Part shown: positions 8,114-15,899 of the stretch, piece by piece
Layout of the letters: each line of letters starts with the position of its first letter
Numbering within the stretch: the stretch's first letter is position 1
Virus record (IMG/VR): IMGVR_UViG_3300009285_002342
Coordinates: 1 to 64,000 of that record
From: a virus
Length of the DNA: 64,000 nucleotides
Direction: 5' to 3' (one strand)
Position numbers and translations under genes: made by a program
Notes under the pieces: generated by a model
The model's database searches: none
What the model was told of the DNA's origin: nothing
What the model saw: the letters and a program-made list of their open reading frames with translations, nothing else

Positions 8114-8563
8114 ATGAGCCATAGCAAATATCTAAAGTGCGTTTTTCAGCCGAAAGAAATGAAAAAAACCGTAAACAAGGTTGCGAAAAAAATAACAGAA
8201 TTAAAAGAATGCGGAATGAAAATTGAAGCAGTAGCCTTTTCCGGTAATTCCGGTGCAGGAATCGCATATCCACTTTCCTTTAAAACCGGAATTCCGTTAA
8301 TCTGTGTAAGAAAAGGTGAAAGATCTCACGGATATGAAGTGGAATCCGCTAATGCAAAAATCAACAGTTATATAATCGTTGACGACTGTGTAGCTTCTGG
8401 AAATACCGTTAAAAGGATTTTAGAAGATATAAAATATTGGGTTGATGAAAAAATAAAGTGTGTTGGAATCATCCTTTACGACAACAATGACTGTGAGGAT
8501 ATTAGATATACAAATCCTAACAATATCCCAATTTTCCGGATTCCAACAGGAGGAGAAAAATGA
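8114..8563 (+). CDS. Type I phosphoribosyltransferase family protein
   Basis: PRPP-binding motif YIIVDDCVASGNT; GIPLICVRK. Confidence 0.85.
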   Translation: MSHSKYLKCVFQPKEMKKTVNKVAKKITELKECGMKIEAVAFSGNSGAGIAYPLSFKTGIPLICVRKGERSHGYEVESANAKINSYIIVDDCVASGNTVKRILEDIKYWVDEKIKCVGIILYDNNDCEDIRYTNPNNIPIFRIPTGGEK

Positions 8564-9977: not shown

Positions 9978-10352
9978 TCATTTCTCGTTTCTTTTCCGTT
10001 TTTCCTTAGCGGTTTTGACCCTATGGTGAGAAAAACAGAGGGATTGTAAATTGTTTTCGTCCCAAAAATCCCCACCATCTTTTACTTCTATAATATGGTC
10101 CACGGTTTCCGCAGCTTCCGTAACATCGAATTTTAAACATTCTACGCAAAGTGGCTCTTTGCACAAATGTCTGTTTCTTAACCGTTGCCATCTCGCAGTA
10201 TGATATCTAGGATCGCTACGATAATCGGAATCCCTCGTTTCGTATTTCGGTTTAACTGCCTTTTCGTAAAGATTATGTTTTTTACAATACTTCCCTTGAA
10301 CTATGATTTCCGGACAAGACGGATAGGCACACGCTTTACCTAAAGTTGGCAT
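9978..10352 (-). CDS. HNH endonuclease, terminase-associated (HK97 gp74-like)
   Basis: CAYPSC..YCKKH, RWQRLR, PLCVEC, VDHI..KDGGDFWDENNLQSLCFSHH. Confidence 0.9.
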   Translation of the reverse strand: MPTLGKACAYPSCPEIIVQGKYCKKHNLYEKAVKPKYETRDSDYRSDPRYHTARWQRLRNRHLCKEPLCVECLKFDVTEAAETVDHIIEVKDGGDFWDENNLQSLCFSHHRVKTAKEKRKRNEK

Positions 10353-14242: not shown

Positions 14243-14476
14243 TTATCCCGTACTGCAAACTTTTGATGTTTCGTGTTGTATTTGATATATAGTTACTTTA
14301 TTTGTAAAGTAAAATCTTCTGCCGCAATTTGGACAACCGCCAGTAGTCTCGCGATATATAGAAATTACATTATCCCAATACTCAAATGTTCTATCACAAA
14401 CACATTTAAGTAAAGGAAGTGATTCGCCGTCAATTCCACCGAAAACAACCTTATCTGTTACGTCAAGATCTATCAT
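14243..14476 (-). CDS. Small zinc-ribbon protein
   Basis: CVC and CPNC. Confidence 0.6.
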   Translation of the reverse strand: MIDLDVTDKVVFGGIDGESLPLLKCVCDRTFEYWDNVISIYRETTGGCPNCGRRFYFTNKVTIYQIQHETSKVCSTG

Positions 14477-14687
14477 TTCGCCCCGTACTGCAAACTTTTA
14501 AAGTTGAATTTAAAAATTCTTGAAGATCTAATCCCGCCGCTAATCTCCGCTTCCTATCAAAGAAAAGCCTTGTGTCCCTACAGTAACTGCAGGAATGATG
14601 ATTTGTTCAAGAATAATCAAAAGCTTTGCTTCCTCTATAAGGCTTTCTCCAGTCTTTACGATTCGGATATTGATGTCGGAAGCTCAT
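14463..14687 (-). CDS. Candidate selenoprotein (74 aa, in-frame TGA at 14607-14609, U-x2-H-x2-C-x2-C)
   Basis: GAGGA RBS; MSFRHQYPNRKDWRKPYRGSKAFDYS-U-TNHHSCSYCRDTRL...; hairpin 11 nt after the UGA; read-through ORF overlaps the next gene's start. Confidence 0.6.
14575..14595 (-). promoter_or_regulatory. Bacterial SECIS-like hairpin
   Basis: TTCCTGCAG-TTA-CTGTAGGGA begins exactly 11 nt 3' of the UGA. Confidence 0.55.
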
Positions 14688-14826
14688 TTGTTTTATCCTC
14701 TATCTTTTTTATTTTAAAAAGTCTATACGAGATTCTCCATCCTTCGCATAAACCTCCAATAATATCTTCTTCGGTTAAATCAGACCAAATTTCCGGATAT
14801 TCAATTTCGAATATGATAGTTTTCAT
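14656..14826 (-). CDS. Hypothetical protein (56 aa)
   Basis: ATGA overlap with the amidotransferase stop. Confidence 0.55.
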   Translation of the reverse strand: MKTIIFEIEYPEIWSDLTEEDIIGGLCEGWRISYRLFKIKKIEDKTNELPTSISES

Positions 14827-15899
14827 TTTACTTCCTCATTGAATATCCAAGGTCTAGCAGGATCGCCGGATCTTTTTAGTAAATCCCGATTAGCGAAACT
14901 ATCCAAGACATATAAAAAATCTTGTTTCCCCATTTCAAAATAATCTAAGTAGCAATCCAAATATTCTAACGGAAAGGCTCCATCTAGTTCGTTAATGATT
15001 TTCACGCCTTCTTCTCGGTTTAATCTTCCTCTGCGAATTTCAATACTTACATCAGCTTGGCACCGACCTATACCAAATTTTAGGTAACACAAAAACATAT
15101 GAAGATCCTGTCCAATATCCCCAAGTTGTGCGTAGTTAGTAAAAGTCCCAATTTCCCCACCTACCGGCATTTCTAAACCGTATTTATGGACCGCTACCTT
15201 CGCATGTCTTTCCGGGTCCCAATCCCAAAAATAAGAACCCCAAGTAACAAAAATATCCTTTAAGTCTTCATCCGTAGGAATTCTCCACCACGGCCCGTAC
15301 TGTTCTTGGTCTTCTTGCCCTTCGTAATAACAATTTACCAAAAAATCCCTTGTGAATCTTTGTAGGTAATCGGATTTGCCCCCGTATTCAGCTTCGCCAT
15401 TTTCGGCGTACATCAAAAGTTTAATTCCTTTTTCTTTCGCCGTCTGGATAATCGCGGTAGATATACCGGTTACGAAAGGTTGTCTAGGCATTCCCTTTCG
15501 AATTAGCCAATCTTTCGCATATTTCCTGTACGCTTTAGAATCGGGAGTTATAAGAATGTTATCAAATCCAGTATTTACGAAGTTTCTCCAGTTCCGCCAA
15601 TCTAAACCGGAAGGAATCTGCGGTGCGAAAGAAACCGTTAAAGGGTGCATACCCAATTGCAATAAAACATCCGCTATGTAGGTAGAATCTTTACCTCCGG
15701 ATGCGGGTACAATACAATTCCAATATCCATCTTCCCTACGATAACTATTACATATAGTCATGAGTTTATTAAATTGATCGTCCCAATTTATTTCTTTTTG
15801 TTTCTTCTCATGCCACTGACAAGCATTGCAAACACCTTCTTCGTTAAAGGTCATTCTTGGTCTTGATTCTGGCATTAAACATCTTAAGCATCTTTTCAT
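14823..15899 (-). CDS. N-acetyl sugar amidotransferase (PseA/WbpG/WbuX family)
   Basis: MKRCLRCLMPESRP..FNEEGVCNAC; PP-loop SGGKDS; YAENGEAEYGG; YLKFGIGR. Confidence 0.92.
   Translation of the reverse strand: MKRCLRCLMPESRPRMTFNEEGVCNACQWHEKKQKEINWDDQFNKLMTICNSYRREDGYWNCIVPASGGKDSTYIADVLLQLGMHPLTVSFAPQIPSGLDWRNWRNFVNTGFDNILITPDSKAYRKYAKDWLIRKGMPRQPFVTGISTAIIQTAKEKGIKLLMYAENGEAEYGGKSDYLQRFTRDFLVNCYYEGQEDQEQYGPWWRIPTDEDLKDIFVTWGSYFWDWDPERHAKVAVHKYGLEMPVGGEIGTFTNYAQLGDIGQDLHMFLCYLKFGIGRCQADVSIEIRRGRLNREEGVKIINELDGAFPLEYLDCYLDYFEMGKQDFLYVLDSFANRDLLKRSGDPARPWIFNEEVK

Follow-up and report, generated by a model that had tools for sequence, protein, structure and literature searches.

A small gene on the minus strand of an uncultured phage carries an in-frame TGA exactly where all of the relatives examined encode an invariant cysteine. 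This TGA is probably a one-base change in a member of a Cys-invariant protein family, and it may be a recent null allele, an error, or a variant in the population that the assembler picked up. The DNA analyzed (the window) comprises the opening 64 kb of an IMG/VR virus record of 115,125 bp, which is estimated to be 84% complete and has a G+C content of 39%. The earlier note on this DNA had proposed that the UGA is read as selenocysteine (Sec) by the host machinery, and the evidence bearing on both readings is given below.

The read-through gene and its protein family

The features of the region are as follows.

14656..14826, minus strand: upstream gene, 56 aa, with a 32-nt overlap between its end and the beginning of the read-through ORF
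14696..14700, minus strand: Shine-Dalgarno-like GAGGA, read directly, with an 8-nt spacer to the ATG
14687-14685, minus strand: ATG of the read-through ORF
14463..14687, minus strand: read-through ORF, 74 codons plus a terminal TGA, a member of the C-x2-H-x2-C-x2-C family
14610..14687, minus strand: 26-codon N-terminal part, the sole product under standard decoding
14607..14609, minus strand: in-frame TGA at the invariant Cys27 column of the family
14463..14606, minus strand: 47 open codons past the UGA, then the terminal TGA (14465-14463)
14575..14595, minus strand: 9-bp hairpin 11 nt after the UGA, the minimum-energy structure
14243..14476, minus strand: next gene, 77 aa, with CxC...CxxC motifs

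The 26 codons before the in-frame TGA end in ...RKPYRGSKAFDYS, and TNHHSCSYCRDTRL follows directly after it on the minus strand. The frame ends in an overlap of 14 nt with the ATG of the next gene (14476). The GAGGA ribosome-binding site, the in-frame TGA, the 47 further codons and the overlap with the next start, all of which the earlier note had described, are present in the sequence. Shine-Dalgarno-like motifs precede 63 of the 109 long ORFs of this genome (58%) versus 11.5% of random positions, and this strong usage is the one hint to the host that was obtained. The 77-aa neighbor (14243-14476, minus strand) gave weak zinc-finger matches (zf-C2HC_2, E = 0.003, below the cut-off) and, given its CxC...CxxC motifs, two small Cys-rich genes adjoin inside a sugar-pathway operon. 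A 112-aa ORF on the plus strand (14504-14842) lies antisense to the entire small-gene region; as the genes of this array run along the minus strand, the ORF is probably spurious.

The read-through ORF is a member of a family of small phage proteins that is very large and as yet unnamed. These proteins are basic and have a C-x2-H-x2-C-x2-C core and the consensus MS[FL][DE]K..., KPYRGSKAFDxSCRNHGSCxYCxxNR. When 1.84 billion cluster representatives were searched with the family profile, 1720 clusters (50% identity) matched at E<=0.001, of which 992 scored E<=1e-10. In the searches that assign the ORF to this family, the E-value was 1.9e-15 for P0001 and about 1e-15 for IMG/VR loci. P0001 and P0002 are 57% and 48% identical to the read-through ORF, respectively, and both have Cys at the UGA column. 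Further matches were found in 28 IMG/VR loci and four phage records, and pattern scans enlarged the DNA-level set to 73 distinct sequences.

In an alignment of 45 sequences, residues M1, K11, Y17, C27, C33, and C36 were invariant and R14, K15, D24, R28, N29, H30, and R40 were nearly so. The window ORF, which is 31-57% identical to 44 aligned members, retains M1, K11, R14, K15, Y17, and D24 before the UGA. In the codons that follow it, N29, H30, C33, C36, and R40 are retained, together with the basic helix found at the C-terminus of family members. Its departures are the TGA at Cys27, T at the near-invariant R28 (as in P0002), and H at the usual G31, and hence all family-invariant residues are kept except Cys27. 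Under table 11 the window gene is a truncated family member.

The codon at the UGA column was TGT or TGC in all 73 distinct homologous DNA loci, and the residue was Cys in all 150 of the cluster representatives listed, of the 1720 clusters (141 were read by pattern and 10 by eye). Relatives examined at this column come to about 220 sequences, every one of which has Cys. The widespread small phage family with Cys at the UGA position, which had been mentioned in the earlier note, is therefore real, and the coincidence of the UGA with an invariant Cys column certainly exceeds chance. Core identity to P0001 was 10 of 13 residues after the UGA versus 19 of 26 before it, and by this measure conservation after the UGA appears equal to that before. 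The post-UGA part also carries the helix pattern of the subfamily of L120, L055, and L128, and no second lesion was found in the 47 codons past the UGA.

Two other family members were found to have lost an invariant cysteine. Contig Ga0126371_10098573 (L196:2809-2907, plus strand) has an in-frame TGA at the invariant Cys36 (...CRVHGCCGW-TGA-GSNREHS); neither a hairpin nor the downstream frame can be judged there, because the contig stops 26 nt after its TGA. A second damaged family copy, on metagenome contig L209, has Tyr at the invariant Cys33 (...SCRNHGSYGWC...).

Searches of Pfam and PHROG models with the protein and all 45 aligned members returned no family, and a PDB profile search gave only a weak match, to the HNH domain of ZRANB3 (E = 0.14). 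In the ESM Atlas the family falls in viral 'hypothetical protein' clusters. At the His column of the core the representatives have H in 132 cases, G in 6, and N in 3. An AlphaFold2 model built with the alignment had a mean pLDDT of 72 and was confident only for a long helix (34-72), the knuckle region being of low confidence. C33 and C36, the second ligand pair, lie at the N-terminus of this predicted helix. The predicted helix, the position of the ligands, and the high K/R content suggest that the family protein probably binds nucleic acid and consists of a compact metal knuckle (ligands C27, H30, C33, and C36) with a basic helix behind it. Of the metal or redox motif put forward in the earlier note, the metal part is favored and the redox part is not: judged from the alignment and the AlphaFold2 model, the motif resembles a metal knuckle with a structural role rather than a redox site.

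The family also occurs in other arrangements. In IMGVR_UViG_3300003465_000055 (L097:10571-11893, plus strand) the family domain forms the N-terminus of a 441-aa fused protein that also has a DGHHR motif and a sub-threshold VapB-like Pfam match (E = 6.2e-5, 23.5 bits versus a cut-off of 27). In P0003 (2887 aa), 28 separate stretches match positions 13-34 of the family profile; this may be a repeat protein of Cys/His cores or an unrelated Cys-rich repeat. IMGVR_UViG_3300042868_010844 (L057) has two copies of the motif on the plus strand (8495-8533 and 10056-10094), 1.5 kb apart, whereas the window genome has a single copy, the read-through ORF being the sole family copy in the 115-kb record.

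The hairpin after the UGA

The selenocysteine reading holds that host SelB and tRNA-Sec recode the UGA, that the hairpin at 14595-14575 is an intragenic SECIS, and that selenium replaces the sulfur of the first ligand to give U-x2-H-x2-C-x2-C. We consider this reading unlikely, although it is the leading alternative to a lesion and several of its elements are found in the sequence. The UGA sits exactly on the invariant Cys column with conserved flanks on both sides, and the 47-codon open frame reaches the natural end of the gene. The 9-bp hairpin with a TTA loop, reported in the earlier note to start 11 nt after the UGA, was confirmed, and its spacing matches that of the minimal fdhF SECIS. 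The arms of the hairpin (14595-14587 and 14583-14575) enclose a UUA loop (14586-14584) and include two G-U pairs among the 9 bp. It is made of codons H31 to D38, the C-x2-C codons included, and among these AGT, AGG, TAC, and GAC are minor codons. At 20-21 nt from the UGA there is a G-U dinucleotide, which we take to be at the spot occupied by G23/U24 of the fdhF loop.

The hairpin was compared with several backgrounds. A 30-nt segment at the same offset folds at -9.1 kcal/mol or better after 30 of the 2765 genomic TGA triplets (1.1%), and when the same peptide was recoded synonymously with the codon usage of the genome, only 2.7% of the recodings folded as well. In the bSECISearch consensus, the apical loop lies about 16-37 nt after the UGA and has a G in its first two positions. 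Our filter for SECIS-like geometry required at least 8 contiguous pairs and a loop of 3-14 nt that starts 16-37 nt after the codon and has a G in its first two positions. The window hairpin passes only in the form in which the closing G-C pair is opened, giving an 8-bp stem and the 5-nt loop GUUAC; 4.8% of the TGA triplets of the genome also pass. The hairpin statistics give a likelihood ratio of roughly 5-20 in favor of selenocysteine.

However, the relevant control for the hairpin is the same site in the Cys-encoding relatives. There, 7 of 69 homologues fold as well by energy and 8 of 69 pass the geometry filter. The hairpin is therefore only moderately unusual, 10-12% of Cys-encoding relatives having a comparable one at the same site, and it exceeds chance only weakly. 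Relatives share such hairpins because C-x2-C gives two TG(C/T) codons three codons apart and TGCA is self-complementary. Both Cys codons of the window gene precede an A, and thus the hairpin is largely a by-product of the S-C-x-Y-C-R-D codons. The 61-nt fold had a shuffle z-score of only -1.08. A loop G and a bulged U are features of the fdhF SECIS, whereas the minimum-energy UUA loop of the window hairpin has no G and its stem has no bulged U. A scan of 14300-14800 against Rfam (E<=10, SECIS models included) gave only snoRNA-type noise.

The chemistry of the site also argues against selenocysteine. The cysteine is most likely a structural metal ligand, as judged from the alignment and the predicted structure, and we know of no natural Sec substitution at a metal site of this kind.

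Other UGA-bearing members, decoding of the UGA and the origin of the codon

Conservation of the UGA in other family members was sought with degenerate DNA patterns. The narrow pattern, K-A-F-D-x-x-TGA-x-N-H-x-x-C, had no matches in IMG/VR, where its TGY version found 63 contigs, and none in 241 million JGI metagenome records. Its one match in the GTDB genomes, in Flavobacterium (L240), was rejected as chance, being antisense within a TetR-like regulator gene. The broader pattern, K-x-F-D-x-x-TGA-x-x-H-x-x-C-x-x-C, gave one IMG/VR match (L241), which was also rejected as chance because it is antisense to two plus-strand genes; its hhalign probability of 93.8% is inflated, since the pattern itself had fixed the matching residues. 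Near relatives were also sought with a pattern that admits any TGN codon, and it had no matches. The UGA at the Cys27 column is thus a singleton in IMG/VR, the JGI metagenome contigs and the GTDB genomes, as searched with patterns that cover part of the family, and of the further UGA-plus-hairpin homologues that the selenocysteine proposal would lead one to expect, these collections gave no real case.

For a family of at least 1720 clusters, the lack of a second UGA-bearing member in these three collections weighs against selenocysteine. As the UGA is not conserved independently, the reading goes without the criterion that usually decides such cases. Note that singleton status is weaker evidence than the counts suggest, because the patterns cover part of the family, near-identical records may be missing from the collections as searched, and the phage is without close relatives in them. 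The DnaE of the phage is about 32% identical to those of cultured phages and 50% identical to that of the nearest IMG/VR contig, and a search for syntenic or close relatives by way of the neighboring amidotransferase and DnaE found none closer than 50%. Judged by these protein identities, the phage appears isolated in the collections searched. If the UGA does encode selenocysteine, the Sec form would be lineage-specific, a recent Cys-to-Sec switch with a SECIS carved from the C-x2-C codons, a scenario that we regard as doubtful.

Components of Sec decoding (tRNA-Sec, SelA, SelB-wing, and SelD) were sought in the 84%-complete phage record and none were found. An RF01852 match of 34 bits, below the cut-off of 47, was rejected as a phage tRNA-Sec; it is the tRNA-Tyr. 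The machinery could come from the host, because 21.5% of sequenced bacteria use Sec (PMC5029168) and a Sec-competent host is thus possible. On the other side, we found no phage selenoprotein in the literature searched, and a review of viral recoding names only two selenoproteins, both of poxviruses (PMC8310308). With a unique UGA, hairpins in 10-12% of ordinary relatives, and a phage record in which no Sec genes were found, the claim that host machinery reads this UGA as Sec is not supported.

TGA is an ordinary stop codon in this genome. It terminates 54 of the 139 ORFs of at least 100 aa in the phage record, and when the record was screened for pairs of ORFs separated by just one TGA, judged by eye, no other pair resembled one gene. 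Stop-codon usage and this screen led us to reject TGA as a sense codon. That TGA is a sense codon here, through an alternative code (4 or 25) or through a UGA suppressor carried by the phage, is accordingly very improbable, the stop usage coming close to refuting it; reading TGA as sense appears to merge no other homologous gene halves. The four tRNAs found by ARAGORN are those for Ile, Gln, Tyr, and Met. The genes for tRNA-Gln, tRNA-Tyr, and tRNA-Met form a cluster (G000:C1:114152-114936) outside the window and within 200 nt of the record end. As the 84%-complete record stops inside this cluster, further tRNAs could sit past its end, and this is what can be said in favor of a suppressor.

UGA is the leakiest bacterial stop codon, and a third alternative is read-through of a few percent by a near-cognate tRNA (Trp, possibly Cys). 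The allele would then be attenuated rather than null, owing to a low dose of the full-length protein. The intact downstream frame is consistent with such leakage, and the overlap with the start of the next gene would preserve translational coupling. However, a protein with Trp in place of the invariant Cys would very probably lack activity, no signal that promotes read-through was identified, and the 84%-complete record contains no suppressor tRNA. As nothing sets a leaky stop apart from a plain recent null allele, we think it improbable.

We therefore favor a one-base lesion or assembly error, and we infer that the codon is not decoded as sense. In this explanation, a single third-position change would have made the codon of the first ligand TGA in place of TGT or TGC, and standard decoding would halt translation after 26 residues. 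The allele would be null, since a 26-residue product is without the entire Cys/His core. The TGA could have arisen as a recent nonsense mutation, as a minority variant fixed in the assembly, or as a base-call or assembly error, and the intactness of the remaining frame suggests that the change is either recent or not real. The damaged copies L196 and L209 elsewhere in the family support a lesion.

Several observations count against the lesion. The sequences before and after the UGA are equally conserved, the 47 codons hold no second lesion, and the frame ends in a normal overlap. The hairpin adds its minor codons, its rarity among synonymous recodings and genomic TGA triplets, and its G-U at 20-21 nt. 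Moreover, the gene is the only copy in this genome of one that is widely kept, and the force of the uniqueness of the UGA is weakened by the isolation of the phage.

Significance and comparison with known systems

Were the UGA read as Sec, the gene would encode a selenoprotein of a bacterial virus, of which the literature searched gave no described example. It would tie an uncultured phage to a selenium-using host and would place Sec in an apparent structural metal site, an unusual setting in chemical terms. On present evidence the gene is of more use as a calibration case: one base change can yield a UGA on an invariant Cys column together with conserved flanks and a well-spaced hairpin. As C-x2-C codons are intrinsically self-complementary, what decides such a case is still whether independent lineages conserve the UGA. 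The family itself, which counts 1720 clusters or more and for which there is no Pfam or PHROG model, merits a name and a functional assignment.

The window gene resembles bacterial selenoprotein genes, in which SelB reads an intragenic SECIS and of which E. coli fdhF is the prototype, in having an in-frame UGA at a Cys of its homologues and conserved coding on both sides. The likeness to fdhF extends to the 11-nt distance from the UGA to the hairpin, to a UGCA element in the stem, and to the G-U at 20-21 nt, whereas the window hairpin is without the bulged U and its predicted UUA loop is closed by a G-C pair. In contrast to bacterial selenoprotein genes, no second Sec-containing homologue of the window gene was found in the collections searched, its hairpin is not distinctive against those of Cys-encoding relatives, and the residue in question is a probable structural metal ligand rather than a redox catalytic residue.

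The known viral selenoproteins are the glutathione peroxidases of molluscum contagiosum virus and fowlpox virus, the fowlpox SECIS being inside the coding region, and among viruses no precedent for UGA as Sec other than these two would be available (PMC8310308). These are captured cellular selenoenzymes of eukaryotic viruses with eukaryotic SECIS elements, whereas the window gene is specific to phages, with no ancestor among cellular selenoproteins. With ordinary phage nonsense alleles and pseudogenes, the window gene shares a single-base change of a Cys codon to TGA, its occurrence in one record only, and damaged copies elsewhere in the family (L196 and L209); it differs from them in a hairpin and codon choices that are somewhat better than chance, at about 3-5%.
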